From Roseibacillus sp. (GTDB lineage: Bacteria; Verrucomicrobiota; Verrucomicrobiia; Verrucomicrobiales; Akkermansiaceae), in assembly GCA_002715825.1 (NCBI GenBank), contig PBAI01000011.1:9020-73019 (forward strand): a stretch of DNA of 64,000 nt, written 5' to 3'. The position numbers and the translations under genes were made by a program. Within the stretch, counting starts at the first letter, position 1. Each line of letters begins with the position of its first letter. The notes under the pieces are model-generated. The model saw only the letters and a list, made by a program, of their open reading frames with translations, was not told where the DNA came from and searched no databases. This document shows, in pieces, positions 12,742 to 57,885 of this stretch.

Positions 12742-13154
12742 TAGTCAGGACCCCGGTGCTCTACTGCTCCACCATCTTTCATCTTGTGGAAAAATCCAGT
12801 TTCTTTGCAGGATTAAACTCTATGCGCGGGCGGGGTGGGGGACAAGACAGAGAATGTCACCCGATGCGCTTAGCCGCTCTCGCGTTTCCCTGAATTTTCA
12901 CGGTTTCGGGTCAGGGGGCTCTGTCCAGCTGGCCTTGAAAACACTCTCGCATATTCTGGTAGAAGGACATACTCAAGGCTCGGCGGAGAGCCATTCAGTC
13001 CGAGGACGACTAAATTCCCGAAATGACCGAATCCGGTCGCGAACGAGATCTCATCGGCAGAGGTCTCCCTTCAAAGACACCCCCTGCGGAACAGCAGGTG
13101 GCACGGTGGTAGATCTTGTCTTCGACCGGTAGACTGTTTGCGTTGGGAGTTCAC

Positions 13155-17840: not shown

Positions 17841-17854
17841 GACTCGGATTCTAC

Positions 17855-25363: not shown

Positions 25364-25364
25364 A

Positions 25365-28445: not shown

Positions 28446-28592
28446 AGATGCGTCTCCGGATGCAAACATGAGAGGGGAGGGGTGACAAGCCGGGGAGACA
28501 TTCTGTTTAGAACAGAGGGACGAGAGAACTGGGAGGCGCGCATGTTCGATTTCCGCTTGGCACCCTCCCGCCCTCCTGAGATGCTGCAAGAG

Positions 28593-29662: not shown

Positions 29663-31147
29663 ATGAATATTACCCGCTTTATCCCAGCTGCCGGACTCTC
29701 CTCCGCAGTATTCCTCCTAGGACTTTGCAAAGCCAGCGCCGAGGTGTCTGTTTCCAAGATCTTTGGAGATCACATGGTTCTTCAGCAGGAGGCGCCTATT
29801 AGAATCTGGGGTGCGGCCAAGCCGGGAGAACAGGTTATCGTGGGTGTTGCAGGGGGAGGGAATGCGCTCGTTAAAGCAGACGATTCGGGCCACTGGAAGG
29901 TTGAGTTACCAGCAATGAAAGCTGACGGAAAAGCTCATACCATTACCGTGCAGGGTTCCAAAGAGGCCGATAAGATCACCCTGAAAGATGTCCTTATCGG
30001 TGAAGTCTGGATCTGTTCCGGTCAGTCCAACATGGAGTGGAGCGTTCGTCAGTCCATGAATGCTGACCGGGAAATTTCGGGAGCAAAGCATCCCCAGATC
30101 CGTCTCTTCAACGTTCCGGGCCATGTTCGTAATGCGGAACCAATGGATGATCCAAGAGGGCAGTGGCAAATCTGCTCGCCCCAGACCATTTCAGGATTTA
30201 GCGCGGTGGGTTACAGCTTTGGAAGGGAATTACAGAAGAGTCTCAAGGTCCCTGTTGGACTTGTGGGGACAAACTGGGGAGGAACCCGAATTGAACCATG
30301 GACACCGCCAGTTGGCTTCAAGTCCGTCTCAAACTTGAAAGATTATGTGGAAAATCTGGATGCAATTGAGGCCGCCAAAAAAAGTGGAGGTAGTCGCCCT
30401 CGTCCCAAAGGAGGCGCAGTTGAGATTTTCAATGGGATGGTCGCCCCTCTCGTTCCGCTCAGTGTGCGAGGAGCTATTTGGTATCAAGGGGAGTCAAATG
30501 CTGGAGATGGGCTTCGCTACGAATACCTCAAGGAAGCGCTGGTGAACGGGTGGCGTTCTGTTTTCAAGAACGACAAGCTTTCATTCTACTGGGTGCAGCT
30601 AGCAAATTTTCAAGGGCCAAATGGAAACCCCGCGGGTGGGGGATGGGGTCCTGTGAGGGAAGGTCAAAGGAGAGCCCTGAGAGTGCCCGGGACGGGAATG
30701 GCAGTCATCATTGATATAGGGGATGCTCGTGATATTCACCCGAGGAATAAACAGGATGTCGGTAAGCGTCTCGCGCTATGGGCTCTGGCCAAGGACTATG
30801 GCAAAGAGATCGTGTTTTCAGGGCCTCTCTACAAGAGCATGAAGAAAGAGGGGGATGCCATAAGGATCAGCTTTGATCATGTGGGTTCAGGCCTGATCAC
30901 GGGCCGCAAGGAAGGCTTGAATCCAGTTATGGAAGTCGGTGGAGGCCAGCTTGGGCATTTTGCTATTCAGGGGGCGGACGACAAGTGGCACTGGGCTAGC
31001 GCAAAAATTGATGGAGAGACCGTGGTTGTTTGGAAGGAAGGATTAAAGAACCCCAAGCATGTCCGCTTCGGATACGAGTCCAATCCAGCGACGATCAACC
31101 TTTACAATAAGGAGGGCCTTCCGGCATCTCCGTTCACGACTGATTAG
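29663..31147 (+). CDS. Sialate O-acetylesterase-like (SASA/DUF303 family) carbohydrate esterase
   Basis: Signal peptide. GEVWICSGQSNMEW and WYQGESN catalytic-region motifs; 494 aa. Confidence 0.8.
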   Translation: MNITRFIPAAGLSSAVFLLGLCKASAEVSVSKIFGDHMVLQQEAPIRIWGAAKPGEQVIVGVAGGGNALVKADDSGHWKVELPAMKADGKAHTITVQGSKEADKITLKDVLIGEVWICSGQSNMEWSVRQSMNADREISGAKHPQIRLFNVPGHVRNAEPMDDPRGQWQICSPQTISGFSAVGYSFGRELQKSLKVPVGLVGTNWGGTRIEPWTPPVGFKSVSNLKDYVENLDAIEAAKKSGGSRPRPKGGAVEIFNGMVAPLVPLSVRGAIWYQGESNAGDGLRYEYLKEALVNGWRSVFKNDKLSFYWVQLANFQGPNGNPAGGGWGPVREGQRRALRVPGTGMAVIIDIGDARDIHPRNKQDVGKRLALWALAKDYGKEIVFSGPLYKSMKKEGDAIRISFDHVGSGLITGRKEGLNPVMEVGGGQLGHFAIQGADDKWHWASAKIDGETVVVWKEGLKNPKHVRFGYESNPATINLYNKEGLPASPFTTD

Positions 31148-31150
31148 GAA

Positions 31151-31168
31151 GTCGGCCCTGTTGCCGAC
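31151..31168 (+). terminator. Possible weak stem-loop just after the esterase stop
   Basis: gtcggc-cctgtt-gccgac: a 6-bp perfect stem (7 bp with the flanking a/t pair) and a 6-nt loop, 4 nt after the stop at 31147. No U-tract follows, so terminator function is doubtful. Confidence 0.2.
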
Positions 31169-31299
31169 TGCCGTGCTGAAACTTCCCAGGAGATTTCTAT
31201 GCACGGGTTTGCGCCTCGGAGGTAGCTACAACTTTTTCAAACTTGTGTCTCAGCGGGTTTGAGAATCTGAATGCGTGCCATGAAATTCCTTAGACCAAG

Positions 31300-31773
31300 G
31301 TGGGGCTGCTGCCTTTGTTGGTCTCATCTTTTGTATATGGAGCGGAGAACTTGAGTTGGCACGCCTCCGGGAAAGGCGGTGCGGTGGTCGCCGAGAATCC
31401 ACAGGCGATCAGCGTGGCGGGCGGAGACCTGCAGGACCAGACGACCTTGAACTGTCTGCTAAACGTGATCGAATTTGGAATGGATCCCAAGCAAGCAGTA
31501 TCCTGTGCACGTTTCAGTACACGGCACCATGAGAACTCCTTCAATCCTGCTCGGACGCGTGAGATTTACGGGCTGGGGCATGTGACGCTGCAGAGTACAG
31601 TCCGGGAGTCAATAGTCAGGAACCTCTCGGCGCGTGGGCATCGGGTAGTGGAAGCGGAGGGTGCGATTGCGGCTCCCGTTATGCTGTTTCTTGATCGGGA
31701 AAGCGAGCTTCTGCATGCGGCAGGCGATCCGAGAGCTGGTCGCCACGCTGCAGTGCTTCAACCGGTGGAATAG
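31300..31773 (+). pseudogene. ggt: Gamma-glutamyltransferase C-terminal remnant (small-subunit tail only)
   Basis: The 157-aa ORF aligns by eye only with the last ~130 aa of GGTs (TTLNCLLNVIEFGMDPKQAVSCARF...AAGDPRAGRHAAV). An in-frame TAG lies at 31291, and I see no GGT-like sequence in that frame upstream. Confidence 0.6.
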
Positions 31774-31803
31774 TTCAGATCCCGACTGGCGCGGAAGCAG
31801 GAA

Positions 31804-32595
31804 TCAGGACGACCAGTTGGTGCCGAATTCCGGGTAAAGGGTGAGGCCGCCATCAATGAAGATCGTCTGCCCAGTTATGTAGGACGCATCGTCAGAGCAG
31901 AGGTAGGCGGTCAAACCTGCCATTTCCTCCGGGGTGCCTGAGCGTCCCATAGGAATATGGCTTTCAACGTCTGCACGGGCTTTGGGATCGTTGATCCAAG
32001 CACGATTGATAGGCGTGATGGTAGCTCCAGGGGCTACGCCGTTGACCCTGATTCCGTGCGGTGCATATTCCAGAGCCAGCGTTCGTGTGAGATTCTGCAT
32101 TCCACCTTTGCTGGCGGAGTATCCGATAAATCCGGGCTTGGGAATGATTTCGTGAACACTTGAGATGTTTATGATTACTCCGGGTCTGCTCTCTTGACGA
32201 AGGTTCGAAAGGGTGCGCTGCGCGCAGTGGAATGCCCCCGTCAGATTGGTAGCGAGGATCGCTTCAAACTCGCTGCGAGAGGTTTCATGACTTGGGCACT
32301 CGGCCTGCCAGGCCGCATTATTGATCAGGATGTCGATCCCCCCCATTTCGTCCAGAAAATGGTCGAACATGCTGTCTACCGAGCTCTCATCGGCAAGATC
32401 AGCCGGGAGGAGAATGGGCGAGTGTCGGGAGCCGGCACCCTGAATGACGTCCATTGTTTCCTGAGCGCCTTCTCGACTTCGGAAGAAGTTGATTCCCACG
32501 CGGCCCCCTTCTGCTGCGAGGCGGATGGCAATCGCCTGACCGATTCCTGAGCTAGCTCCAGTTACGAGGATGCGCTTGTCTTCAATGCCGTTCAT
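31804..32595 (-). CDS. SDR family oxidoreductase (glucose 1-dehydrogenase-like)
   Basis: TGASSGIGQAIA cofactor motif, NNAA, and the YSASKGG catalytic YxxxK; 263 aa. Confidence 0.85.
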   Translation of the reverse strand: MNGIEDKRILVTGASSGIGQAIAIRLAAEGGRVGINFFRSREGAQETMDVIQGAGSRHSPILLPADLADESSVDSMFDHFLDEMGGIDILINNAAWQAECPSHETSRSEFEAILATNLTGAFHCAQRTLSNLRQESRPGVIINISSVHEIIPKPGFIGYSASKGGMQNLTRTLALEYAPHGIRVNGVAPGATITPINRAWINDPKARADVESHIPMGRSGTPEEMAGLTAYLCSDDASYITGQTIFIDGGLTLYPEFGTNWSS

Positions 32596-32651
32596 TGCAG
32601 CGTAGGATGGTAGGTTACCAGCGTGCTGGCGATCCTGTAATTCCGCAGTCG

Positions 32652-34043
32652 TCAGCTCAGGCCCTTGATTGGAGAGGCGCTGGTGACCAGTTGGTGGATG
32701 TCACGTGGGAGATTTTCCATGAGGCGAACCTGACCAACATCCAGAAGGGTGTGCATTATGGTTCCGATAAGATTTTCAGTCGTGACAGCGTTCGAGGCGG
32801 GTTCTCCTGCATCGGCTGAGGATTCACCGATTACTTGCCCCATTCGAAGCCCACCGCCGGCGAGCATCAGAGGAGCCAGTCGGCCCCAGTGGTTTCGTCC
32901 GCCGTTTTTCTGCAGTTTCGGCGTGCGACCCATTTCCCCGCAGCAGACGAGGAGAATCTGGTCACTTAGACCACGGTCATGGAGATCATCCAGAAATGCC
33001 GACACTGCATGATCAAAGGGGACTCCACAATAATCCATGCCCTCGGCAGCGCCTGCGTTGTTCTTGTCGGAATGAAAGTCCCACACAAAGTTGGTGGTAA
33101 CTGTAACGAAACCAGCTCCACGCTCGCAGAGACGCCGTGCGAGCAGCATGAGTTTGCCGAGGGTTTGGCCATGGTCCCTGTAATTCCGATGGTTGTTCCA
33201 CGATTTGCTGATTGAATTGGGATTGATCAGAGGAGCGGTGTCATATCGTGCAATAGTTCTGGGGTCTTCTCCGGAGAGGTCGAAGGCCTCGGAAATACCA
33301 CCAGTTATCATATTAACGGCCTGCTTCTGCAGCTCTCCGAGCCCATCGGCGGCACCATTGTCAATGGCTCTTTTGAGTCGATCCATCTTGTTGAGAAGAT
33401 ACATGCGGTCCTCGAGGCGCTGTCGGGACATCCACATCGTCATGTCTCCCTGCAGGCTATTTTTTGCGCTTCCCGGCGCGAAGGGCGCACAGGAGGCTCC
33501 AGCTGTGCCATGTGCAAGGAGATCACCGAATTGCTTGACGCGTTCCTGAGAATTCTCGTCCACAGCCCGGGGGAAAAGAGCGACGTTCCGGGGCATGCCG
33601 GTGGTTGGAACATTCGCCCCTGCGATCCTGGAAAAGAGCGATCCGATGTTGGCTCCCAGAGAATCTTTTCCCACGATGGGTTTTATGTCGTGGTTCCCAT
33701 TTCCGGTGGTGTAAGACCTTACAATGGCGAGTTGGTTTGCCCTTTCAGCAAGCTTTTCAAACGTACTGCCGAAGGTTACTCCCGGAATGGAAGTCTTCAC
33801 CTCACCTGTGGAGCTGCGAATCTCGGCTGGCGCATCCATTTTTGGATCAAAGGTCTCCTGCTGGGGAGGGCCGCCATGCATGAAGAGAAAGACCACAGAT
33901 TTGTTCTTCAGTGGGATTCCCGCCTTTGCGGCAGCGGCTCGCCAGCCTATCAACTGTGAGAGGGAGAGTCCTCCAAGGCTCAGGCCTCCTACTTGCAGAA
34001 AGGAGCGGCGGCTATAGGGGCTGGAGTCTGCAAAGGTAATCAT
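32652..34043 (-). CDS. DUF1501 domain protein, Tat signal (short subtype)
   Basis: SRRSFLQVGG. HGGPPQQETFDPK, CGEMGRTP and GRNHWG motifs. The start ATG overlaps the upstream stop (ATGA at 34040-34043). Confidence 0.88.
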   Translation of the reverse strand: MITFADSSPYSRRSFLQVGGLSLGGLSLSQLIGWRAAAAKAGIPLKNKSVVFLFMHGGPPQQETFDPKMDAPAEIRSSTGEVKTSIPGVTFGSTFEKLAERANQLAIVRSYTTGNGNHDIKPIVGKDSLGANIGSLFSRIAGANVPTTGMPRNVALFPRAVDENSQERVKQFGDLLAHGTAGASCAPFAPGSAKNSLQGDMTMWMSRQRLEDRMYLLNKMDRLKRAIDNGAADGLGELQKQAVNMITGGISEAFDLSGEDPRTIARYDTAPLINPNSISKSWNNHRNYRDHGQTLGKLMLLARRLCERGAGFVTVTTNFVWDFHSDKNNAGAAEGMDYCGVPFDHAVSAFLDDLHDRGLSDQILLVCCGEMGRTPKLQKNGGRNHWGRLAPLMLAGGGLRMGQVIGESSADAGEPASNAVTTENLIGTIMHTLLDVGQVRLMENLPRDIHQLVTSASPIKGLS

Positions 34044-36841
34044 TTCGAGGCTGTCTCAGTAGAGGCCTTTCCTGGCGAAGGAAAGGAGTAGAGAAGCTTG
34101 CGATCGTTGGACTGCCAGACACGCAGAATTCCATTCTCACCACCTGCGAGAATGAGGGATCCATCGGCGCTGACAGCGGAGTCGTATATGAAATCGTCGA
34201 TGCCTGGCAGATTCTGCCCTCCGGCTTTCAAAAGCCTGTCCCCACCTCCTGTCACAATGGTTTCACCGGTTCCAACGAAGGCGATCGTGGTTAGCTCTTT
34301 TTTGAAGCCAGCCTCGGTTTTTTTCTGCTTCCGCGTTGCGACGGTCCAAAGCTTGGCGACATGATCTGCTCCAGCGGAGGCAATGGTTTCACCATCAGCA
34401 CTCCAGGCGACATCCAGAACATGACTGGTGTGTCCCTCCAGTTGGGCGAGCATCTCCTGATTGCCGACTTCGTGGATTCGGATATATCGGTCTGTAGAGG
34501 AGGACGCGATTCTTTTGCCGTCGGGAGAAAACGCCAAGCCGGTTATCGTGTCCTCGTGAGCCTTAATGACTCCCTGAATCTGTTCCTCATCAATGTTCCA
34601 AAGAGTCAGCGACCCATCCCGGGAAGGAACCCCTGAGCCAGCTGCGAGGAGCTGCCCTTCGGGGTGAAAGGCGAGGGAAAGGACGCGATCAGAGAAAGGC
34701 TCCTCGCGCTTCTGGTCCCCGAGAGTTGTCCGAAGTTTCCAAAAAGAGGTCTGGGTCCAGTGGAGAAGCCCCTTTTCCGAAGTTGAAGCGAGAATATGGC
34801 CTCCAGCGCCGAATATGATGGAGGAGACGGGAGATGAATGGAGGACATCAAGGGGCTGTCCGGTAACTGTACTCCACAGGCGAAGCCCGCGTTCATCGGT
34901 TCCAACCGCCAGCAAATTGCCATCTGGTGAGAAAGAGAGTGTAGTTATCTGATCCATCTCGAGCTGGGAGGCCCTCTCTTCGATTTCCTTGAAGGAGGCT
35001 TCATGCCGAGCGAGTGATTCATTGGCCTGGACCGAAGCGGATTCTGCAGCCTGCAGTTGCTCGGTGGCTCGGGCAGTATCTTTTATTGTAAGATCCCGGG
35101 TTCGTTCGGCGTTTCGAAGATTGCGCTCGGCGGTGACAAGATCATTTGCGGCCTTGGTTGCCTCTTCAGCAGCTTTCTTTGCTGCAGCCTGAGCCTCTCC
35201 GAGGGCCGAATCACTACTGGCTTCAAGCTCCGCGACGCGTTTTTTCGAGGCCTCGTCAATCTGGCGTTTTTCTGTCGCAATGACTTCCTTGCCGCCGAGA
35301 TCCTTTTGAGCCTCTGCGACTTTGCTGGAATCATTCTGGGCCTTGGTTTTGAGCTGCTCGAGTTCCTTCGCTATTCCTTCTGCCTGTTTTTTGCGAAGTT
35401 CTGTAATACGCTTGGCCAACTCGAGATCCTGACTCGACCGGGTTCGCTGCTGTTGGAAATCCAGATCACCCTTGAGTTCTTGCTGCAGCTTGCCGTCCTG
35501 AATGGACCAGATCTTGATCACCCCGTCTGCTCCCGCAGTGGCGAATTGCTTGGTTTCGTCGTGGAACGCAACTGCGCGGATAGATCCCCCGTGATTGGAT
35601 GTCCGGATGACGCGTCCCGTCGAGTCCCGTAGCTCGAGGAGACCCTCACTGCTCGCAGAGAGTAGTTGTTGGTCCCTGTCGCCAGTCGCGTAAAGAGCCA
35701 TGATCTGCCCTGCGGCTTTCCATTCGGTCTGGTCTGCGGTCTCACGAGGAGCGGCGGCATCCGCTGCGAAATCATCCAGAGGGATAAGTCGGATAGAGCC
35801 ATCCGCACCACCGACAGCGAGCTTGGAGCCTTCAGCAACTACTGCAAGACTTCGGCCTCCGGAAGGCGTGTCCACGCGGGAGGTCTGAGCGGGATCAGAG
35901 AGGTTCACACGGATTATGGCCTTATCGTCAGATGCAGAGAAAAGGTATTTTCCGTCGAGAGAATACTGGAGAGCTTTGATCGCGGTCTCGTGCAGTTTGA
36001 GCAGAACCGGGTTCTCAGGTTGGTCGAGATCCAGAATGGCAACATTTCCTTTGCTATCCCCGGCAGCAGCTTTCGTGGTGCCGGAATGGGCGGCAAGGAC
36101 GGTGGCAGCTTCCTGCAGAGGGAGCACCAGAGCTGCGGGAGGCACAACGCTGCGCTCCCATAATTTGACTGAGCGATACCCTCCAGAAGCGAGTGTTCCC
36201 TGGGAATTAAAGGCCAGAGTGTGAACGAGATCACGATGGGCGGTGCCGGGACTTCCAGAAGGGTCAACAAGTTCTGCGTCAAGATTACCGGAGCGCAGAT
36301 CGTAAACGTGCAGCCGATTTCCGTTACCGGTGGCCGCGAAGCGGGCATTATCCGAAATTGCGACAGCGTAACTCGAGTGAACACCTTCCAGGGGCTCCCA
36401 CTCTATTGGCCCGGCAAGGATGGAAGAAGAGTTACCTTCACCACCCTGCTCGATCCAAAGTCTCAGAAGTGCGAGTTCTGCAGGGTTGAGGTTGGAAGCA
36501 TTCGACTTGTTGTTATTTGGAGGCATGAATTCCTCCTCGAGATGAGCCGCCGTTGTAAAAAGGAGGCTCTCCATTGGTTTGCCAGGAACGAGAGCGGGAC
36601 CGCTGTCTCCTCCAATTAGCATTTCCTCCGGAGATTCCAGATTGAGATCTCCCCTGGCCTTCTGCTCATTGTGACAGGCAAAGCAGTTTTTGCGCAGAAA
36701 GGGAACAACCTCCTTGGCGAAGTCGACTTTAGTGCTCCGCGTCAGGTCGGCTATTGGCAGACCCTCTTCGGCAACGACGCGCTGGGACTCTGTCAGGGCG
36801 AGACCAACAATAATGGAATAAAATATAAAAGGGGATCTCAT
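34040..36841 (-). CDS. Planctomycete cytochrome c domain / WD40 propeller protein with a central ~175-aa coiled coil
   Basis: Sec signal and CFACH motif with LNLESPEEM...MPP. WD40-like repeats lie on both sides (e.g. VLSLAFHPEGQLLAAGSG..., ITGLAFSPDGKRIASSSTDRYIRIHEV, VLDVAWSADGETIASAGADHVAKLW). An Ala/Glu/Lys-rich heptad-like segment is encoded at about 34955-35480. Confidence 0.85.
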   Translation of the reverse strand: MRSPFIFYSIIVGLALTESQRVVAEEGLPIADLTRSTKVDFAKEVVPFLRKNCFACHNEQKARGDLNLESPEEMLIGGDSGPALVPGKPMESLLFTTAAHLEEEFMPPNNNKSNASNLNPAELALLRLWIEQGGEGNSSSILAGPIEWEPLEGVHSSYAVAISDNARFAATGNGNRLHVYDLRSGNLDAELVDPSGSPGTAHRDLVHTLAFNSQGTLASGGYRSVKLWERSVVPPAALVLPLQEAATVLAAHSGTTKAAAGDSKGNVAILDLDQPENPVLLKLHETAIKALQYSLDGKYLFSASDDKAIIRVNLSDPAQTSRVDTPSGGRSLAVVAEGSKLAVGGADGSIRLIPLDDFAADAAAPRETADQTEWKAAGQIMALYATGDRDQQLLSASSEGLLELRDSTGRVIRTSNHGGSIRAVAFHDETKQFATAGADGVIKIWSIQDGKLQQELKGDLDFQQQRTRSSQDLELAKRITELRKKQAEGIAKELEQLKTKAQNDSSKVAEAQKDLGGKEVIATEKRQIDEASKKRVAELEASSDSALGEAQAAAKKAAEEATKAANDLVTAERNLRNAERTRDLTIKDTARATEQLQAAESASVQANESLARHEASFKEIEERASQLEMDQITTLSFSPDGNLLAVGTDERGLRLWSTVTGQPLDVLHSSPVSSIIFGAGGHILASTSEKGLLHWTQTSFWKLRTTLGDQKREEPFSDRVLSLAFHPEGQLLAAGSGVPSRDGSLTLWNIDEEQIQGVIKAHEDTITGLAFSPDGKRIASSSTDRYIRIHEVGNQEMLAQLEGHTSHVLDVAWSADGETIASAGADHVAKLWTVATRKQKKTEAGFKKELTTIAFVGTGETIVTGGGDRLLKAGGQNLPGIDDFIYDSAVSADGSLILAGGENGILRVWQSNDRKLLYSFPSPGKASTETASK

Positions 36842-39345
36842 TTCGGAGCATCTTTCGGAGTTGGGTGCACCAGCACGGTAATCAACTTTGAGTGGATTGT
36901 ATGCTTACGGTCTTTCTCCTTGGCGATATCATTTGCCCGTTTCAAGCGTTCAGAGGCCGTTTGCCTGGCAGCAGCAGCACGCTTCAATTTTTCGTCTGCG
37001 GCTGCAGCGAATTTCCGGGCCTCTTCAAAGAGTAATTTTTTGGCTACTACTGATTTTTCGAGAGTTTCCCGGGCTTCTACTGAGGCGGCGGCACGGTTTT
37101 TTTCCGCTTCCTGCAAAGCTTGCTGGGCGCGGGCTATTGCGGTCTTGGATTCTTCAGCTTCCTTCTGTGTTTCCTTTTCCAGTTGAATGATTCTGGCTTC
37201 CTCTGCTTGAGCTCGTTCTACCGAGGAAAGGTTGTGCCTGTGTTTTATAGTAGTCTCACCGCGAAGGCTGAAGGTCCACAGCCCAGGCGTGGCCTTGAAC
37301 TCAGCAGTGTCGCCAAACGTGATTGCCACGTTTCCTCCGCCAGCGTCCTGTTTCAGTTTTACTGAGGGAGGCTTAGTGTGAGGAAGACCGTGAACTCCGA
37401 CCAGCAGGTCGCCTTTCAGTCCCATGGACTTTTTAATCTTGAATGGAATTTCCAGTTTTTCTCCAAGGGTTACCTCATAACGATCCGAAGCTGGCTGAAT
37501 AATCAGCGGTGCCGGTTCGTCTGCGGTAACAGAGAGAGGAAGCTGACAGGAAAGACGAGATCGGGTGAACTCGGTATCTCGATTGCCGATGGACCAGGAG
37601 ATGGTCCCGGGACGGGCAGTCCGTCTGGTATCACCTGCCGTTCCGACCACTCTCACGAAACCTTGCCAGTTGTCTACCTCCTCGGTCCCATAAAGAACCA
37701 GCGTTGCAGAATCTTTCCCCGCTGGAAGGATAACCGGGGGACACTCAATTCCATTCGGGAGCCCTTCCACTGAGAGTGAAATGGAATTCTTGAATCCATT
37801 TCTACGGATCGCAAAGACTCTGAGGAGAGTCGTTCCGCCTCGCCTGATTACCGCACTATACCGGGAGATAGCCTTGGTGGCCTTTTCGGGGGCTGCATAC
37901 CATGCAGTGGTCAACAGATCGTAATCAGGTGCGCCTGGATGGATTATCAGGCGGTAAAGATCCGCAGGGCTGCCACCACCGGTGTAATCGTGAATCCGGA
38001 GGCGGTAAATGCCATCACTTGGAGGCGTAAAGAGCAGCGAGCAATCATGGTTTTGCAATGGAAAATTGAGTCCTCCCGGATTGCCCCCTGAGTCATCGTT
38101 GCCGGTGATTTCCTTGAAACTTTCAATCCCCTCAGCATCTACGGTAACGCGGTCTATCCACAGGACGGGATCAGAGCCCGCCCGGATCCGGCTCGCAATA
38201 CATTCGATCCAGAGAGGCTGACCCTCTTTGGCTTCGAACCGATATTGGTCGAGGTCTCCCTTGGAGTCAAAACGAGCGTGGGTCTCGCTGGGAATTTGGA
38301 TTGCCTGCTCCTGCCCCTCATTTTCCTCGATAACCGGGAAACGGGAAAAACCAATGCGGATAGGATTTGATCTCCTGCCATTCAGCTCCAGGCGCCATGT
38401 CATTCCGGGAACAAGAGACGAGTAAATTCCCCCTGTTTCCAGTTCGAGAGCGTCCTCGTGATTCAAGGGAATCTCAACCTCGATACTCTCCAGTTCCTCG
38501 TGTCCGAGTCGGATCCCTTCGCCGGGGCTGCCTCCTGGAAGATTGCGTCCATAGATCTTGAATTTCCCAGTGCTACCATGGGGCCCTGCAGGGGGGTCGA
38601 TAAAGTCGATGTGAGGAGCATCGGTTACAATCAATCGGTAGGGGTAATGCACGCCGCCCGCGTAGGTGAAATCGTAGACCCGGAGCAGGTAGTGACCGTC
38701 CTCGGGTGCAGTAAAATCAAGAAGGGGATCCCGCCCACTGGTGTCCCTGTCGGACTTGTATTCGTGTCCACCACTGCTCGCGATGGATATCGTGGCATCC
38801 ATCCGGGAGTCGATGATTTCAGCCTCACAACGGATAATGACACGCTGTCCCTGCTTGAGGCTGACTTTGTAATGGTCTACCGCCGCAGCATCGGCATGTC
38901 CGTTGATCACTGTGTTGATCGGGACTTCTTCTGCCGTTTCGGGTGAGTGATTGACCTGATGAACCTTCTCCGGAAAGGAGCTTACCGCAAAGGCACGCGG
39001 TGCAGTCATGCCGAGCCGGGTTGCGGCGATTACTTCGTAGACGCCGGGAGCCACATCTGGTGCCACAGAAACCAGGTAGTTAAGCGCTTTGTGGCCGGCA
39101 GGGGTGAACTCGGTAGCTTTCGTAGGGACTTGCTCGCACTTGATTCCTGGGTGCGAAAAAAGCAGCCCTGTGGTCTCTTCCAGTTCAGACCCTCCGATAA
39201 CGACTTCCACGGTCTGTCCAGCTTGGCCACCTTGCGGGAAGATGGTTTGGAGATCAGGATGAGGGAGCTGAGCCTTCGCTAAAGAGGCTCCAACAAGGAG
39301 GCAAGAGGTGAGGATGTTCCGCCTTCTGGTATTTGAGATAGTCAT
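36838..39345 (-). CDS. Secreted protein with two [Ig-like + pre-peptidase C-terminal (PPC)-like] units and a C-terminal coiled coil
   Basis: Signal peptide. Two similar blocks (DHYKVSLKQGQRVIIRCEAE...APEDGHYLLRVYD and DQYRFEAKEGQPLWIECIAS...PPSDGIYRLRIHD). The C-terminal ~100 aa is rich in A/E/K/R (encoded at about 36900-37225). The stop overlaps the next start (ATGA). The domain assignment is by eye only. Confidence 0.6.
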   Translation of the reverse strand: MTISNTRRRNILTSCLLVGASLAKAQLPHPDLQTIFPQGGQAGQTVEVVIGGSELEETTGLLFSHPGIKCEQVPTKATEFTPAGHKALNYLVSVAPDVAPGVYEVIAATRLGMTAPRAFAVSSFPEKVHQVNHSPETAEEVPINTVINGHADAAAVDHYKVSLKQGQRVIIRCEAEIIDSRMDATISIASSGGHEYKSDRDTSGRDPLLDFTAPEDGHYLLRVYDFTYAGGVHYPYRLIVTDAPHIDFIDPPAGPHGSTGKFKIYGRNLPGGSPGEGIRLGHEELESIEVEIPLNHEDALELETGGIYSSLVPGMTWRLELNGRRSNPIRIGFSRFPVIEENEGQEQAIQIPSETHARFDSKGDLDQYRFEAKEGQPLWIECIASRIRAGSDPVLWIDRVTVDAEGIESFKEITGNDDSGGNPGGLNFPLQNHDCSLLFTPPSDGIYRLRIHDYTGGGSPADLYRLIIHPGAPDYDLLTTAWYAAPEKATKAISRYSAVIRRGGTTLLRVFAIRRNGFKNSISLSVEGLPNGIECPPVILPAGKDSATLVLYGTEEVDNWQGFVRVVGTAGDTRRTARPGTISWSIGNRDTEFTRSRLSCQLPLSVTADEPAPLIIQPASDRYEVTLGEKLEIPFKIKKSMGLKGDLLVGVHGLPHTKPPSVKLKQDAGGGNVAITFGDTAEFKATPGLWTFSLRGETTIKHRHNLSSVERAQAEEARIIQLEKETQKEAEESKTAIARAQQALQEAEKNRAAASVEARETLEKSVVAKKLLFEEARKFAAAADEKLKRAAAARQTASERLKRANDIAKEKDRKHTIHSKLITVLVHPTPKDAPK

Positions 39346-39358
39346 ACCAGTTGGACAG

Positions 39359-41941
39359 TCAGTGGTTGAAGAGAAACTCCTTGGTATTGAGAAGCGCCCA
39401 GATCAGATCTTCATAAGGTTCACGAGCGAGGGCCTCTGGTGATGGCTGTTTTTTCCTGGCGTCCCCGCTGAGGGTCGAGGGGTCCACCGGACTACGTTTG
39501 CGATTGAGATACTGTATTCCTACCTTCAACTCTTCCGGTCCGGGAGCTCGTGAAAACGCTCGGCGGTACAGTTCGCTAATACGTGCTTCATCACTGAATT
39601 CCTTCTTCTTAACCAGAAGAGCGGCTCGTGCATTATCGGAGGCAAGCTTGTTCCGGATATTGGTGGAATTGACGAGGTGGAGGGCCTGCGCGAGATTGAC
39701 ATCATCTGCCCGTTCGCATTCGCAGGCACTATTCATGTCCGGGCGGCCAAACACCGAAAGAAAGTAGGATTCCTTGGTGAACTGATCATCAGGGAGTTGG
39801 ACCGCTCGAACACCCTGGGGCTGTCCACTGAACGTTTCCTTTGCGTTGGTGACCGTATTAATTCCATCGAGAAGAATCTCGGCGGGTAGACGGCGAGGGT
39901 AAAACCGAGAGTAATTCTGCCGGTCATCAATGTTGAAATCGTTGGGATTGGAACTGAGTTGGTAGGTGGTGCTGTTACAGATCGTGCGAACAAGCCCCTT
40001 CAGATCATATCCGCTTTTGACAAAACTCCGTGCGAGTGCGTCGAGAAGCTCTGGGTGGGTTGGAGGATTGGTGACGCGCATATCGTCCTCCGGGTCAACA
40101 ATGCCGCGTCCAAAGAAATGTTTCCAGTAGCGGTTCACCAGCATTCTGGCGAAGAACGGGTTATCTTCGTTGGTCATCCAGTCAGCGAGGGAGTCCCTTG
40201 GGTCATTATGCTGATCAAGGATGAGCTCTTTCCCTCCGAGGGGTCTTGGTGGAAGAGCGCGCCCGCTTCTCGGATTCTTAGCGCTCGCTACGCCAATTTT
40301 GTTGAAGATGACCTCCTCTCCCGGTTGAGCACCGGGTTTACGGCCGATCTTCGAGAAGAATGCCTCAAACCCGTAATAATCGTCCTGACTCCATTTCTCA
40401 TACGGATGGTGATGACACTGGGCGCACTGCAGTCGCTGGCCGAGAAAAATTTGGGCAACATCCTGTAGTTGTTCCTTGCTGTCCTTGACTGTCCGATACC
40501 AGATGACCGGTGGGTTTTTTCCGACCTCCCCGGATGCCGCAACAAATTGGCGGACGAACGAGTTGTAAGGCACGTTGTGGTGGAGAGAATTCCGGATCCA
40601 CGAGTGAAAAGCAAAACTACCCCTTGCGTGATGAGCTGAGGCCCGTTTGTTGCGAAGAATAGCCGACCACTTCCCGGCGAAATAGTCCGCATAGTCAGTG
40701 CTGGCAAGCAGCTCATCAATCTTGCGGCTCCGCTTTTCCGGATTCGTATCAGCGAGGAACTTATCGGTTTCGTCGAGGGTTGGCAGGCGCCCGGCGATGT
40801 CAATTGTGGCCCTGCGAAGGAAGGTGGAGTCATCACTCAAGGATGATGGAGGAAGGCCAAGGGTGCGAAGCTTGGCAAAGATGTGCTGGTCTACAAGGTT
40901 GTCCGAGGACGGCAAATTATCGACTGGTGCTCCCAGAGGAATTGTGGCCCGAAAGACACCGACATGCTCCTGAAAGCGGATCATTACAGAGGCACTTCCT
41001 GTGCGCTCCTGCATGGTCACAAGTCCTCGGTCACTCACGATCGCCATTTCTTCGTCGTTGGCCTCATATTGAGCGATACGGGTGACATCCTTGCTGGATC
41101 CGTCATCGAAGTGAGCGACCACTCTCAGCTGCTGAACGGCCTTGGCGCTTGTCAGGCGCTCTCGCGGTTCAACAGAAATCCGAGTTACCGGAGAGTCACC
41201 CTCGGATCCATAGGGGAGGCCCTGCCGAATCCAGCGAACAATGGTCTTGTAATCATCACTGCCTCGAGTGAGGCGGGATCCTCCCTGATGAGGAAGTTCG
41301 CCACTTGCTTTCAGGAGAAGCAGGCTGTGGCTTGGAGACGCCCTGAAAATGCGTCTCCCCAATCCCTCTCGGGCAAGATAGTTGTGGTCGTCTTGTGGTT
41401 CGTATCCGAGCAGTGAAAGTTTAAATCCGTTCTGGCCCTCAGCCTTTCCGTGACACCCACCTCCGTTGCAGCCGTGGCGCGTAAAAATGGGTACGATTTC
41501 ATTGGGGAAACTGATCGGAAGTTGTTCTTTCGCCTGACTCACCTTGACCGTTCTCGCAAGGAATGAACCTGCGTGTTTCGCGGTTATTGTGGCGCTGCCG
41601 TTACCGATGACGCGGATAAGGCCGGTAGGAGAGACCGACACGACGCCGGCAGGCTCTACCGCGAATCCTGCACTAGCGGTTACATCTTCTGTTGCTCCAC
41701 TCTCATGGAGGGTAAGCACGAGCTGATGGAGGTCGTGCGGACCTTTCATCGTGATGTCCTCCTCACTACTCCACCGAAGAGTAGCACCATCCAAAATACC
41801 ATTGGGGGTGCTCCTGATTGCGACCGAGGCCTGACCCGGAAGGCTCTCCTCGGATGCACCGTTTCCGGTAGTTAAAATCACCAGGAGGCTCGAGAGTAAA
41901 AGAAGAGAAGGCTTCACGGTTGGGACAATGGGGCTATCCAA
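39359..41941 (-). CDS. Big_2 (Ig-like) / DUF1549 / DUF1553 protein
   Basis: Ig-like segments ([25 protein letters not shown]; [17 protein letters not shown]...VSDRGLVTM), [51 protein letters not shown] and HPELLDALA. The start may be GTG 41917 (giving [20 protein letters not shown]) rather than TTG 41941. Confidence 0.85.
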
Positions 41942-43286
41942 CGAGTTCAGGGATCGGAGCGTATTGACTTTCTACAAGAAAACGAGGGCGTCCGGAAAGG
42001 TCATTCACGGTAGTGCGTCGCGCATCAACGCCCAGACAGTGATACAGCGTAGAGAACACTTCCGGGAATTCTACTGGTCGGCTGTTTGCTTCTCCACCGT
42101 CGCGGGTTGTTGATCCGATCACCTGGCCGTGGTTCATTCCTCCTCCAGCGAGAAGAGCAGTGGAAACCTTGGGCCAATGATCGCGTCCCGCATCCTTATT
42201 AATTTTCGGGGTGCGTCCGAACTCTCCCCAGACGATCACACTAACGTCCTTATCCATGCCACGGTTATGCAGATCGTCCACCAGCGCGGTGATCCCCTGG
42301 TCGAGGAGAGGAAAGTCCTCCCGTGCACGTTTGAAGTTGCCTCCATGCCAATCCCACCGGCTAAAGCCGAGGGTGACACAGCGAGCCCCTGCCTCCACTA
42401 GTCTTCGTGCCATCAGAAACTGATCCAGTCGCTTCCATGGTCCATCAGCAGTCAGCTTCTCCGTCCCTTTTCCATACCTCTCAATGACTTTTGGATCTTC
42501 CGTGCTCAGATCAAGTGCTCTCGCCAGACGGCTTGAAGTCAAGACCCCGAACGCCTGTTCGGTAAAGGTATCCAGTCCTTCCATTGCGCCAGAATGATCT
42601 ACATCCCGACGGAAATTGTCGAAGGAGTTCAGCAGGGCCTTCCGGTCTGCGAGCCGCTCAATACTGATATCCTTCAAGACCATGTCTTTCTTCCCTCCAC
42701 CACGAAAAGGGGAGAAAGCTGCATGCGAAGGACCAAGAAACCCTGATTGGCCCGGGTCGCCCCACTGGTCATGCTTGCACTTTGGCGACAAACCAAGGAA
42801 GGAGGGCACTCCCGGCCTGGTCTGTCCAGAAAGCTTGGACAGCACCGAGCCGATGCTGGGCCAGCCTCCCGGAGGTTGCGGACCCTGTGGCTTCCGCCCC
42901 GTGAGGCACTGAACAGCATCATGACCGCCTCCGGCACCAACCATGGAACGAATGATGGAAAACTTGTCCATCATCGTGGCCATTTGCGGGAACAGCTCGC
43001 AGATTTCAATACCGGGAACGTTTGTGCCAATGGGGTTGAATTCGCCCCGAATTTCGGAAGGGGCATCAGTCTTCAGATCCCACATATCCTGATGGGGAGG
43101 TCCACCTGCGAGAAAGATCATGATAACCGCCTTATGATCCATGGGCTTAAGCTGAGCTTCCGATTCGGCGCGCAGAAGTTGAGGGAGGGAGGCTCCGCCC
43201 AGTCCGAGTGCGCCAATCTTCAGGAAACCGCGGCGTGTCATGCCGTCGCAGAAGGCTTCTCCTTTTTGGGCGGCGATGGTCAGCAC
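41934..43286 (-). CDS. DUF1501 domain protein, Tat signal (short subtype)
   Basis: [16 protein letters not shown]; ATG 43241 is a plausible true start and the track start at 43286 is [24 protein letters not shown] and GRDHWP motifs. Confidence 0.88.
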
Positions 43287-43457
43287 GGCAGAATAGAATT
43301 TAAGATTCTTTAAGCTATCTTAGGTCTGATCCGGGTCATGGCTATCGCCAAAAGCCCACGACTATGTCCACGTTTATATGTGTTCATATGATCACTTTTT
43401 TTAATAAGGGTTTCGCCGAGGTGGCCCAGAGGATCCACGGTCGGTTTTGGTGACACC

Positions 43458-44396
43458 TCAGGGGACGTCAAAGCGATAAATCGACGCCCCAACTCCCTCG
43501 CTGACAGTGAAAAAGAACTCGCCGTCAGGAGAAAAAGCGATCGATTCGCCCTGGGGCTCAGAACGAACAGGAACCCCAATGGGGTCTTCTCTGAAAATTT
43601 CGTGCAGCGGGGAGTCAGGGTCCGGTTTCTTCCAGAGGAGAGCTCCTTTTTTGGGCTGTGGCGAATGGCTTCGCAGAATGATCATGCGCCCGTCCCTTGA
43701 AATATCTCCTCCACGTATTCCCGCGGATGGAGCGAAGCTGCCTACCGCGCCGAGGGTGCGGAGAGTGCCGGATCTATGTGGTCCTGGTGCATGAAAAACC
43801 GAAGCCACCTCTCTGGCGCCCTCACTTCTTTCGCGACTGATGAGGTAAATGTCTTCGGTGAGAGGATCGACTAACAAAGTTTCGCACTCTCGTGGGTCGG
43901 CGGGAAATCGCATCGAAAGAACCTCAATACCAGTCAAGGTCCGGTGTTTTGGAGCAGGGATTGTCTCCAATAGCGGTTCCAGAACCCGGTAAACAGTGAC
44001 AGTTCTGCGGGATAAGTCGTTGTTCCCGGTATCGGCAATATAGAGATAATCCCGGTCTTTTGACGGTCCCGGACCGATAGCAATGTCTTCCCAGTCGATA
44101 GCCCGGGCCCCTTCCAGTCGGAATACCCCGAGGAGGCCACCATCAGTGCCAAGAGCGAATACTCTGGCTTCGTCTCCTGAGTCATTATGAGCCCAGATTA
44201 CATCGTTATTCTGTCGGCTCAGAGCAATACCTGAGATTTCCGTGAGGCTTTCGGTTTGCACCCGTCCTGTACGGGTGCCCGGTTTCGACCCCGCTGATTC
44301 GAGGGCCCACCATGCGACGCTCAGCAAGAGAAGAACTGAGATCAAGACGAAGAATCGGTCGGCCATCAAGGTTCGGTAATGCTTTCCTAGTTTCAT
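43458..44396 (-). CDS. Secreted or membrane-anchored beta-propeller-like protein (SdiA-regulated/phytase-like pattern), function unknown
   Basis: N-terminal hydrophobic anchor. ISGIALSRQNNDVIWAHNDSGD...AIDWEDIAIGPGP...YLYIADTGNN resembles that family pattern. No search was run. Confidence 0.4.
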   Translation of the reverse strand: MKLGKHYRTLMADRFFVLISVLLLLSVAWWALESAGSKPGTRTGRVQTESLTEISGIALSRQNNDVIWAHNDSGDEARVFALGTDGGLLGVFRLEGARAIDWEDIAIGPGPSKDRDYLYIADTGNNDLSRRTVTVYRVLEPLLETIPAPKHRTLTGIEVLSMRFPADPRECETLLVDPLTEDIYLISRERSEGAREVASVFHAPGPHRSGTLRTLGAVGSFAPSAGIRGGDISRDGRMIILRSHSPQPKKGALLWKKPDPDSPLHEIFREDPIGVPVRSEPQGESIAFSPDGEFFFTVSEGVGASIYRFDVP

Positions 44397-44467
44397 CGAG
44401 ATTCAGTTTGTTTGTTCTCGGGTTAATCCTGTAGCATTGCTGGTAACGCTACGAAATTCTGTGTCAT

Positions 44468-44671
44468 ATGGCTACTTACGTATACGAGACGATTCCAGAA
44501 AACGCTGATGAAAAGCCCCGACGTTTTGAAGTTCAGCAGAAAATGACGGAAGACGCTCTGACGCATGATCCGGAGAGTGGCCTGCCGGTTAAACGGATCA
44601 TCACTGGCGGGTGCGGAATCGTCACTCATGGAACCAGTATCCTGTCCATGCGCTCCCGGGGATCAAAGTAG
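44468..44671 (+). CDS. Small FmdB-like protein lacking the zinc-ribbon cysteines
   Basis: 67 aa. MATYVYETIP...RRFEVQQKMTEDALTHDPESGLPVKRIITGG follows the FmdB-family spacing (MPxYxYxC..CG..FE....m.....CP.CG..v.R), but both CxxC knuckles are replaced. Confidence 0.5.
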   Translation: MATYVYETIPENADEKPRRFEVQQKMTEDALTHDPESGLPVKRIITGGCGIVTHGTSILSMRSRGSK

Positions 44672-44814
44672 GGGGTCTCCCTTCCTTCACTGGCGACAAA
44701 AATGAAGGGTTGGGACCCGACTGACGCGGGCAGCCGGCAAGTCTCTGCGAATCTGAACTGACAAGTCAGATTTCGTGCCGTATCAAGAGAGAGCTCACAG
44801 GCCATTAACCCACG

Positions 44815-46713: not shown

Positions 46714-46737
46714 GTTGCCGTGTAGAGCGCCAAGGTT

Positions 46738-57703: not shown

Positions 57704-57885
57704 CGAAGGTTGCCGAGTGACTGCCGCCCAAAGGGCGTAATACCGGGCCAAACTTGAAGTTCTGACCTCTCGAGGATAGCGATTCATTTCCAATATGCCT
57801 CGTTGATAAAGCAACCCGCCCGCCACAGAAATCCCCTTGATTCTTAAGCCGAAAGCCCGGATTATCCTGAAGTAGAAGACTGGTT

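Follow-up and report, generated by a model that had tools for sequence, protein, structure and literature searches.

A five-gene DUF1501/PSCyt cluster from a Roseibacillus-like verrucomicrobium and its putative haem-c core

The window, a 64,000-nt stretch of Roseibacillus sp. DNA (contig PBAI01000011.1 of assembly GCA_002715825.1), carries five consecutive minus-strand ORFs between positions 32652 and 43286, as given by an ORF listing. We call them A to E from 5´ to 3´ (Table 1). A and B overlap by 8 nt if B begins with TTG and are separated by 16 nt if it begins with GTG 41917. Gene callers start close orthologues of B eight codons later (852 aa), for which reason we favour GTG 41917. For A, an orthologue alignment speaks for GTG 43286 as the true start: three orthologous loci have ATG at this position, and the codons of the N-terminus are conserved. 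B and C lie 13 nt apart, and 4-nt ATGA overlaps join both C to D and D to E; the former is kept in 19 of 43 loci, the latter in six of eight. The ORF list, a junction check and Pfam bear out all ORFs, junctions and domains of the original prediction, and gene packing together with the ATGA overlaps upholds its co-directional, translationally coupled unit. The locus appears to be an operon of a marine Roseibacillus-like verrucomicrobium, and one transcript presumably spans the five genes. A scan for promoter- and terminator-like sites is uninformative in this respect, because their counts do not exceed those of shuffled sequence.

Table 1. Features of the locus and the simple gene pairs found in the same window
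Feature	Position	Strand	Remarks
Gene A, DUF1501	41934..43286	-	450 aa, GTG start; Pfam 276 bits
Gene B, cytochrome-like/Big_2/PSCyt2/PSD1	39359..41941	-	860 aa from TTG, or 852 aa from GTG 41917
Gene C, Ig/PPC protein	36838..39345	-	835 aa; Pfam PPC 43.7 bits
Gene D, PSCyt1/WD40 protein	34040..36841	-	933 aa; Pfam PSCyt1 56 bits and two WD40 blocks
Gene E, second DUF1501	32652..34043	-	463 aa; Pfam 190 bits
Intergenic leader of gene A	43287..43457	-	171 nt; likely promoter/operator region
Short-chain dehydrogenase gene	31804..32595	-	Pfam adh_short_C2, 213 bits
Simple PSCyt1-PSCyt2-PSD1 + DUF1501 pair	6599-11231
Simple PSCyt1-PSCyt2-PSD1 + DUF1501 pair	11266-15494
Simple PSCyt1-PSCyt2-PSD1 + DUF1501 pair	16383-20092
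Simple PSCyt1-PSCyt2-PSD1 + DUF1501 pair	23930-28619
Simple PSCyt1-PSCyt2-PSD1 + DUF1501 pair	44815-48165

The leader of gene A contains a palindrome, GTGATCATATGAACAC, at 43380-43395, which occurs only once in the window. An alignment with five orthologous loci showed that the palindrome and other non-coding blocks of the leader are conserved among Roseibacillus loci. No Rfam family matches the leader. Over positions 31000-45000 Rfam gives two chance-level matches only, which speaks against a riboswitch in this region. A σ54 promoter at the conserved TGGCGATAGCCA block was considered and rejected by eye, because the window does not preserve the -12 GC. At the other end, 56 nt 3´ of gene E, lies the dehydrogenase gene on the same strand. 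It follows E in several further loci (L004-L007, L012 and L085), this synteny being limited to Roseibacillus, and it may be a co-transcribed passenger.

Protein B consists of a Sec signal, an Ig-like domain, a small cytochrome-like domain, Big_2 and an all-α PSCyt2/PSD1 core (158 and 174 bits, respectively). Big_2 scores 17.7 bits, under the cut-off of 22.8, and is recorded in many B orthologues. The cytochrome-like domain contains a CX4CH motif (C158/C163/H164) and H218, the helical core the motif C506-xx-C509-H-H-H (CXXCHHH). Among 71 orthologues, conservation of C158, C163, H164, H218, C509, H510 and H512 reaches 100%, that of C506 and H511 99%. The Pfam model misses this PSCyt1-like domain, which is recognised only via alignment to the PSCyt1 domain of D (E=0.002) and to the dihaem cytochrome FoxE (a weak match, E=3.6e-4 in a PDB profile search). 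The CXXCHHH motif of PSCyt2 is not known to bind haem. When the model of B (m6bf6f9bf699b, pLDDT 85.8) was compared with the PDB by Foldseek, the Ig/Big_2 domains alone found matches (LigA, S-layer proteins), and the search gave no solved structural relative of the helical PSCyt2/PSD1 core. B is 53-60% identical across Verrucomicrobiales, distant C homologues in Verrucomicrobiales and Planctomycetota share 33-37% identity, and B appears to be the slowest-evolving component.

Protein C starts with a Sec signal, which is followed by two successive Ig-like+PPC units, two more β-sandwiches, a helical hairpin and a C-terminal β-strand pair (model m49b2f8dffc41, pLDDT 89.8, pTM 0.85). The original prediction had named a non-coding 835-aa ORF as a refuter; the ORF is coding, with 394 homologues in one search and 5,179 clusters at 50% identity and E<=1e-30. 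The proposed duplication of the Ig+PPC unit stands for the PPC-like domains, which are homologous (30% identity, E=6e-12), although only the first of them passes the Pfam threshold. It does not extend to the Ig-like domains, which share no sequence similarity and are both β-sandwiches in the model. The supposed C-terminal coiled coil takes, in the model, the form of an antiparallel helical hairpin (706-807), which is set into the last sandwich. In a Foldseek comparison with the PDB, a PPC domain gives the one specific match of C: this domain, the copy being unspecified, resembles the collagen-binding domain of ColG (PDB 2o8o and 5sv5, TM 0.78-0.83). Whole-chain Foldseek matches of C to α2-macroglobulin, complement C3 and ciliary proteins were discarded as generic multi-Ig resemblance with TM of only 0.09-0.15, and the thioester motif C[GL]EQ (CGEQ) is absent from C. 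Assignment as a lipoprotein ("LTSC") was also rejected: its Cys falls within the hydrophobic core, and what is conserved is the cleavage context A-x-A|QLP. The alignment profile of C returned coiled-coil noise only from PDB sequences.

Protein D is composed of a Sec signal, a PSCyt1 haem-c domain, a WD40 propeller, a helix-rich linker and a second WD40 propeller. The linker (about 170 aa, 455-630) is, by composition, rich in helix-forming residues and poor in Gly and Pro. The haem motif C53xxC56H57 and M106-P107-P108 are present in 100% of 43 orthologues. The combination that marks a c-type cytochrome, CXXCH or CXnCH with a conserved axial ligand, is thus found in D and, through its 71 orthologues, in B, and both proteins probably attach haem. 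In one natural fusion (P0387, 1,985 aa, a single cluster representative), C is joined in frame to mature D. We take this in-frame fusion, which omits the D signal peptide, as an argument for a physical partnership of C and D at least. The hairpin of C is not simply a D-docking element, since it is retained in modules where D is missing.

Both DUF1501 proteins exceed the Pfam gathering threshold of 27 bits (PF07394) and have Tat-type export signals, with an RR motif in that of A. Protein A contains GGPPHQD, WDWH, GEFGRT and GRDHW, conserved in 19 A-type orthologues, and E contains GGPPQQE, WDFH, GEMGRT and GRNHW; a motif check found GEFGRTP/GRDHW and GEMGRTP/GRNHW as originally assigned to the two proteins. 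Both are without the Ser found in canonical GGPS, and a regex scan found no C/S-x-P-x-R formylglycine motif in A or E. The two had been regarded as one distinct short subtype. They are indeed mutually closest paralogues in the window (220 bits versus at most 108 for others), but they fall in different subfamilies, here called A-type (module-linked) and E-type. The GEFGRT strand aligns in the classic sulfatase register, and the DUF1501 profile finds marginal sulfatase and LtaS matches in the PDB (E 0.36-1.4; hhalign probability 5%). These weak matches, along with prior knowledge of the Pfam clan, which we take to place DUF1501 in the alkaline-phosphatase superfamily, suggest an alkaline-phosphatase/sulfatase-like fold.

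Wider searches contributed less. PDB sequence searches with single sequences (A, B) and profiles (C, B, DUF1501) gave little beyond Big_2, the weak FoxE match and the marginal sulfatase/LtaS ones; NCBIfam gave nothing but one far-sub-threshold delta-60-repeat match in D, and none of the five proteins matches the PADLOC models of anti-phage defence. In the literature, we found comparative genomics only and no functional study of DUF1501, DUF1549, DUF1553, PSCyt or DUF1800. We know of no characterised system of the A-D type.

Conservation was surveyed over 79 genome loci and 80 metagenome loci. In the genome set, 60 of 63 loci have a B orthologue (600-1,800 bits, as against 100-170 for generic paralogues) immediately upstream of C, and 41 of 58 have D immediately downstream of it. 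Besides Verrucomicrobiota and Planctomycetota, a few MAGs of Acidobacteriota (L057, L066) have this B-C(-D) module. It is present in cultured strains, e.g. Anatilimnocola sp. NA78, and according to the literature Verrucomicrobium spinosum carries it as well. Its association with DUF1501 varies: the gene directly upstream is of A-type in 15 of 49 loci, another DUF1501 type sits upstream or divergently in nine, and the remaining 25 have no adjacent DUF1501. Tandem A-A-B arrangements occur in other lineages, and 24 of the 70 A-like metagenome genes show no linkage to B. Of 36 loci, eight have an E-type gene after D, and these eight belong without exception to the Roseibacillus clade. The predicted five-gene order therefore holds for this clade (8/8 loci with enough DNA), but across phyla the unit is B-C(-D) with optional DUF1501. 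As far as gene order tells, B-C, usually followed by D, forms the conserved evolutionary core to which DUF1501 linkage is optional, and E appears to be a lineage-specific late addition, appended 3´ in the Roseibacillus clade. Neighbour clustering at the 79 loci revealed no other recurrent family (transporter, regulator or CAZyme).

Kamneva et al. 2012 (Genome Biol Evol, PMC3542564) described a "most complex four-gene cluster" of PVC bacteria, found in Verrucomicrobia and Planctomycetes. It encodes a DUF1501 protein, which often has a twin-arginine signal and was treated as the key protein of the cluster, a signal-peptide protein with weak PPC domains and further conserved regions that lack annotation, a PSCyt1/Big_2/PSCyt2/PSD1 protein and a PSCyt1/WD40 protein, and its correlation with intracellular membranes was 0.852 (PMC3542564). 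All four are found here, in A (DUF1501, Tat), C (PPC), B and D (PSCyt1/WD40). Because the Pfam architectures match that list, genes A-B-C-D are an instance of the cluster, and the view that they match no described system has to be given up.

All five proteins carry export signals, Tat-type in A and E and Sec-type in B, C and D, and a periplasmic assembly is therefore plausible. To this extent the originally proposed multi-subunit envelope or periplasmic assembly stands, helped by the C-D fusion, but the conserved unit is not the five-gene set. We consider it probable that the locus represents the four-gene PVC cluster with a recruited E, and that B, C and D form a periplasmic haem-c complex with exchangeable DUF1501 partners. 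We infer complex formation among B, C, D and the DUF1501 proteins. In such a model, B, C and D would be exported via Sec and A and E, already folded, via Tat, so that they meet in the periplasm. B might be the redox or catalytic heart, with two invariant haem-c motifs on its helical core. C, in which β-sandwich and PPC domains form a compact chain together with a helical hairpin, could act as scaffold or ligand-binding partner. D, a mono-haem cytochrome c with two WD40 propellers, might serve as electron-relay platform and probably contacts C directly. The DUF1501 proteins would then be exchangeable metallo-enzyme partners docked on the scaffold. Because half of the loci have no adjacent DUF1501, coupling of enzyme to scaffold may not be obligatory.

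A bolder version of this model would make B-C-D a widespread low-copy periplasmic multi-haem machine of Planctomycetota and Verrucomicrobiota, whose fold has no solved relative and whose catalytic cartridges are interchangeable DUF1501 subunits of alkaline-phosphatase fold. The kinds of DUF1501 in question are the A-type, the second linked type, tandem A-A and the recruited E-type. We regard this version as doubtful. If true, it would define a new class of redox-coupled periplasmic enzyme system and explain the role of hundreds of PSCyt/DUF1501 pairs in both phyla.

Among the alternatives, it is a real possibility, if somewhat short of an even chance, that E and the dehydrogenase are functionally independent hitch-hikers, co-transcribed with a four-gene module. 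E follows D in one clade only. Its orthologues elsewhere (62-66% identity, four other Verrucomicrobiales loci) are all stand-alone; PSCyt genes were seen beside none of the four, and two of them sit after an LTD/CotH protein. For this reason, the idea that two DUF1501 subunits belong to one complex is unproven. Against mere hitch-hiking, the D/E ATGA overlap is kept in the six of eight loci mentioned above while the C protein diverges down to 50% (L013), and other lineages independently hold two or three DUF1501 copies per module (A-A-B), a hint that the module can profit from additional DUF1501 copies.

A substrate-specific catabolic set of periplasmic enzymes, comparable to the many simple PSCyt/DUF1501 pairs, in which PPC and Ig domains bind a polymer (sulfated or decorated glycan, or protein) and DUF1501 hydrolyses it, seems unlikely to us. 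It could account for the sulfatase-like register of DUF1501, marginal as the matches are, and for the resemblance of C PPC to the Ca-dependent collagen-binding domain of ColG (TM 0.83), and a carbohydrate role for PSCyt genes was proposed by He et al. 2017 (PMC5615132). Five simple pairs lie in the same window, one of them with a Laminin_G_3 domain, and a SASA esterase is nearby. Yet the module has no co-conserved CAZyme, transporter or regulator, A and E lack both the GGPS Ser and C/S-x-P-x-R, half of the loci have no adjacent DUF1501, and the identity of B across an entire order better fits a housekeeping role.

We give still less credit to a purely structural function, with B, C and D as non-enzymatic scaffold connected with the membrane invaginations of PVC cells or with their enlarged periplasm, in line with the original suggestion of a tie to intracellular membranes. 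The correlation with intracellular membranes would fit it, but comes from a small 2012 genome set, and the module occurs also in Acidobacteriota MAGs. Ig, WD40 and coiled-coil interaction modules abound in the proteins, and some B orthologues are annotated "S-layer protein"; the Foldseek matches of B Ig domains to S-layer proteins, however, involve generic Big_2 domains only, with whole-chain TM of about 0.1. Moreover, invariant haem-attachment motifs and axial-ligand residues point to redox chemistry. Finally, the notion that unrelated genes adjoin by chance, or that the 835-aa ORF is non-coding, is refuted, practically beyond doubt, by comparative data: gene order conserved across at least two phyla, thousands of homologues and a high-confidence model for C, and conserved overlapping stop/start codons.

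In Planctomycetota and Verrucomicrobiota, which abound as degraders of organic matter in the sea and in fresh water, the PSCyt/PSD/DUF1501 genes rank with the largest families of unknown function. As the most conserved and most elaborate member of the PSCyt/DUF1501 family, A-B-C-D offers the best entry to its chemistry. The four-gene cluster has been known since 2012, and the five-gene form is a local variant. New are the details: CX4CH and CXXCHHH in B, CXXCH and Met-Pro-Pro in D, the model of C, the C-D fusion and a B core with no solved relative. The target is thereby narrowed to a B-C(-D) core, invariant haem-c motifs in B and D including the unusual CX4CH, the C-D fusion, swappable DUF1501 and the cultured strains that carry the module.

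The probable haem-c complex can be set beside several known systems. Compared with ColG, the PPC domain of C is duplicated, placed between Ig-like domains and attached to no protease. D may be likened, by analogy only, to quinohaemoprotein alcohol dehydrogenases, cytochrome cd1 nitrite reductase and hydrazine synthase α, with which it shares a class-I-like haem-c domain (CXXCH + Met) and β-propellers on one chain in the periplasm. It differs from them in its WD40-type propellers, which bear no cofactor signature, and in the helical linker of about 170 residues between the two, and it has no sequence relationship to them beyond the cytochrome fold. DUF1501 resembles sulfatases and alkaline phosphatases in that its "DDLhnRGl..d..vvv.GEFGRT" aligns with the sulfatase "L..G..dnT.iiftSDHG", and in its conserved Asp/His motifs WDxH and GRDH. 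In contrast to sulfatases, A and E have no C/S-x-P-x-R, the E-type has GRNH in place of GRDH, and the overall similarity is as marginal as the E-values and hhalign probability given above.

Closer are the simple PSCyt1-PSCyt2-PSD1 + DUF1501 pairs of the window, with which the module shares common Pfam families, the Tat/Sec split and a cytochrome-like protein adjoining DUF1501. The proteins of the module diverge from those of the pairs. The DUF1501 scores of A and E (276 and 190 bits) compare with 475-505 bits for four pair genes and 250 for the one at 46738-48165; the PSCyt2/PSD1 scores of B (158/174) compare with 266-348 bits in four pairs and 151/120 at 44815-46713. The first-domain motif is CX4CH in the module and CXXCH in the simple pairs, and the DUF1501 motif is GGPP as opposed to GGPS in most of them. 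The module includes C and D as well, and seems both low-copy and much more conserved than the pairs. The closest likeness is to the cluster of Kamneva et al.: both have the four architectures, a Tat-type signal for DUF1501, signal peptides for the remaining three proteins and co-linear genes. There are three differences. In the window, the WD40 gene is followed by a further DUF1501 from a different subfamily; in B, the place of "PSCyt1" is taken by a divergent domain with CX4CH and His, undetected by Pfam; and the core that emerges from the survey is B-C(-D), not DUF1501.

The five minus-strand reading frames are present exactly as the original prediction gave them. In order of transcription they are A (DUF1501), B (PSCyt2/PSD1), C (Ig/PPC), D (PSCyt1-WD40) and E (a second DUF1501). 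Pfam confirms the predicted domains: DUF1501 in A and E, PSCyt2 plus PSD1 in B (with Big_2 below threshold), PPC in C, and PSCyt1 with two WD40 blocks in D. B overlaps A by 8 nt if it starts at TTG, or lies 16 nt behind it if it starts at GTG 41917; the latter is favoured because close B orthologues are annotated as 852 aa. The B/C gap is 13 nt, and the C/D and D/E junctions are 4-nt ATGA overlaps. The long start of A is real, since in alignments with orthologous loci three relatives have ATG at the position of GTG 43286 and conservation extends over the first 15 codons. A short-chain dehydrogenase gene lies 56 nt downstream of E, and the spacer upstream of A measures 171 nt. Promoter-like and terminator-like sites show no excess over shuffled sequence.

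Non-coding blocks upstream of A are conserved among Roseibacillus loci. The first is a palindrome, GTGTTCttATGAACAC (in the window GTGATCATATGAACAC, occurring there once), followed in order by GTATGAACGTGGAC, TTTTGGCGATAGCCATG (TGGC-N4-GCCA) and CCTAAGgTAGCTTAAAC; together they probably serve as operator and promoter. Upstream of the operon lies a 312-aa ORF with nothing beyond a weak Phytase-like match (E=0.004). It keeps this position in Roseibacillus loci L006-L008, L010 and L012 but not elsewhere, and is probably part of another transcription unit.

Coordinates of the operon and of other features in the window
Feature	Position	Strand	Length (aa)	Start
Gene A	41934-43286	minus	450	GTG
Gene B	39359-41941	minus	860	TTG
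Gene C	36838-39345	minus	835	ATG
Gene D	34040-36841	minus	933	ATG
Gene E	32652-34043	minus	463	ATG
Conserved upstream blocks	43300-43400	minus		
Palindrome	43380-43395	minus		
ORF with weak Phytase-like match	43458-44396	minus	312	
Simple pair	6599-11231			
Laminin_G_3 insert-bearing pair member	8061-11231			
Simple pair	11266-15494			
Simple pair	16383-20092			
Simple pair	23930-28619			
PSCyt gene	25365-28619	minus		
ORF without Pfam match	28074-29519	plus	481	
Simple pair	44815-48165			
Low-scoring simple-pair DUF1501	46738-48165			
PQQ-dependent dehydrogenase, fused cytochrome c domain	48926-51001	minus		
TonB-dependent receptor	51127-53259			
PQQ_2/BamB-like propeller	53322-54608			
Planctomycete-type pair	55316-59247			
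PSCyt1/PSD3/PSD5/PSD4/PSCyt3/PSD2 protein	55316-57703			
DUF1552 (HXXSHH) protein	57886-59247			

The coding status of C, on which the original prediction depended, is settled: a first search returned 394 homologues (the nearest in Roseibacillus MAGs at 89-91% identity) and its profile finds 5,179 clusters (50% identity) at E<=1e-30 among 1.84 billion representatives. C is therefore certainly a genuine gene, and its family is large. Scanning one genome per species gave at least 577 loci with a gene for a C relative. We analysed 79 of them, which belong to Verrucomicrobiota, to Planctomycetota and to two Acidobacteriota MAGs, scoring their ORFs against the window proteins. Co-linearity is conserved: a specific B orthologue (600-1,800 bits, against 100-170 for generic PSCyt2/PSD1 paralogues) lies directly upstream of C in 60 of the 63 loci that extend far enough, and D directly downstream in 41 of 58. 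The overlapping stop and start codons are conserved as well, the 4-nt C/D overlap recurring in 19 of 43 loci. Among 49 loci, B is preceded on the same strand by an A-type DUF1501 (the subfamily of A) in 15, accompanied by a third type (~250 bits), upstream or divergent, in 9, and without any upstream DUF1501 in 25. An E-type gene follows D in only 8 of 36 loci, all of the Roseibacillus clade (L004-L013). The five-gene unit is real, but among the analysed loci the order that the original prediction expected in related genomes is confined to this clade; the form that is conserved comprises three or four genes and is already published.

The module also varies in other ways. D may be missing (A2-B-C, e.g. 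L002), C may be doubled in tandem (L033, L044, L076), and two genomes (L043, 1804-18088; L072, 3000-19336) carry two paralogous modules tail to tail, one A-B-C-D, the other a DUF1501-B-C set that lacks D and lies on the opposite strand. No further gene family recurs beside the module in the analysed loci. Outside the PVC superphylum, B-C-D occurs in the two Acidobacteriota-labelled MAGs (L057 and L066, the latter with an A-type DUF1501 as well); lateral transfer or mis-binning could account for this.

Within the window, A and E are more similar to each other than to any other paralogue (220 bits versus at most 108), and in both the canonical GGPSxxD motif is replaced by GGPP(H/Q)Q(D/E). Despite this closeness they belong to different subfamilies; E-type proteins have GRNHW where other DUF1501 have GRDHW. 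A protein on marine metagenome contig MDTG01329965.1 matches E itself at 100% identity. Other Verrucomicrobiales commonly have E-type orthologues (62-66% identity), and none of four contexts inspected outside the module has an adjacent PSCyt gene; in two, a large LTD/CotH protein immediately precedes the gene. In these two Verrucomicrobiales contigs (L083, 5632-11380; L087, 3114-8431) the stand-alone E-type gene lies directly downstream of LTD/CotH-domain proteins of 1,442 and 1,281 aa, respectively, which may represent an alternative partnership of this subfamily.

A metagenome scan with A yielded 70 loci in which the sequence runs on for at least 800 nt past the gene. B follows directly in 36, after one or two additional tandem A-like copies in 6, and after a 0.7-1.1 kb gap in 2; in 2 more a tandem copy is followed by the contig end. 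The remaining 24, all 65-75% identical to A (e.g. L146), show no B in the following stretch of up to 6 kb. The linkage of DUF1501 to the module is therefore facultative and variable. Two or three tandem A-like genes precede B in metagenome loci L118, L119, L122, L126, L144 and L166 and in genome loci L048, L053 and L063. Such copies are an independent route to several DUF1501 per module, and multi-DUF1501 modules arose at least twice, in differing arrangements.

The predicted structure of B (pLDDT 85.8, pTM 0.85) comprises an Ig-like domain, a small helical cytochrome-like domain whose CX4CH loop is modelled with low confidence, Big_2, and an all-α PSCyt2/PSD1 core (349-860) that matches no solved structure. 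C158-X4-C163-H164, H218 and C506-xx-C509-H-H-H are invariant in 71 B orthologues (C506 and H511 nearly so), as are C53xxC56H57 and M106-P-P in 43 D orthologues; these residues include the haem-attachment motifs. All simple-pair paralogues in the window have CXXCH in the first domain, in contrast to CX4CH in B. The cytochrome-like domain of B aligns with PSCyt1 of D (E=0.002), placing His218 opposite the methionine of MPP, and matches the dihaem cytochrome FoxE (E=3.6e-4).

The model of C (pLDDT 89.8, pTM 0.85) runs Ig-like, PPC, Ig-like, PPC, two further β-sandwiches and an antiparallel helical hairpin (706-807), after which two strands rejoin the last sandwich. The PPC copies are a significant duplication (E=6e-12); the Ig-like pair shows no mutual sequence similarity. 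In Foldseek the sole specific match among solved structures is the ColG collagen-binding domain (TM 0.83); likeness to α2-macroglobulin or C3 was rejected (TM only ~0.1). All five N-termini resemble export signals, with strongly hydrophobic cores in B, C and D, and RR motifs and mildly hydrophobic cores in A and E. P0387, a 1,985-aa protein of the representative library, joins a C-type Ig/PPC part in frame to a mature D-type PSCyt1-WD40 part without the D signal peptide. Because a frameshift artefact would have kept that peptide, its sequence marks it as a natural C-D fusion.

We suggest that B, C and D form a periplasmic haem-c complex. B would be its conserved redox or catalytic core, C a scaffold or ligand binder and D a cytochrome/propeller platform. 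DUF1501 proteins would act as exchangeable partners of alkaline-phosphatase fold, to which a weak sulfatase-register alignment points. The periplasmic assembly of the original prediction is probable given the export signals, with E as a putative member. A polymer-catabolic system or a structural envelope component are the competing readings of the operon. E, a recent recruit, might be a mere hitch-hiker; against this, its 4-nt overlap with D is kept in 6 of 8 loci, with C identity down to 50%. Chance adjacency of the five genes is excluded.

The same 64 kb holds five simple PSCyt1-PSCyt2-PSD1 plus DUF1501 pairs, whose DUF1501 score 475-505 bits (four) and 250 bits in Pfam, against 276 for A and 190 for E, as well as a different, planctomycete-type pair. 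The PQQ-dependent dehydrogenase, the adjoining TonB-dependent receptor and the propeller make up another periplasmic redox cluster near PSCyt genes. The 481-aa ORF, probably a shadow ORF, overlaps the 5´ part of a PSCyt gene; the gene called in L085 is shorter (235 aa) and confined to the part free of overlap.

According to Kamneva et al. 2012 (PMC3542564), the "most complex gene clusters" in the DUF1501/PSCyt system comprise four genes (DUF1501; a signal-peptide protein with weak PPC; PSCyt1/Big_2/PSCyt2/PSD1; PSCyt1/WD40). They found such clusters in PVC species including V. spinosum, and proposed membrane-targeted electron transport, with function unknown. Freshwater Verrucomicrobia are rich in PSCyt genes, nothing being known of their function (He et al. 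2017, PMC5615132), and planctomycete WD40 genes often have DUF1501 as a neighbour (Hu et al. 2017, PMC5587647). Our literature search on DUF1501/PSCyt-type proteins found no functional study. All four described genes are present in the window, whereas the fifth, E, is specific to its clade. The operon thus exemplifies a described, uncharacterised module that here carries a lineage-specific fifth gene.
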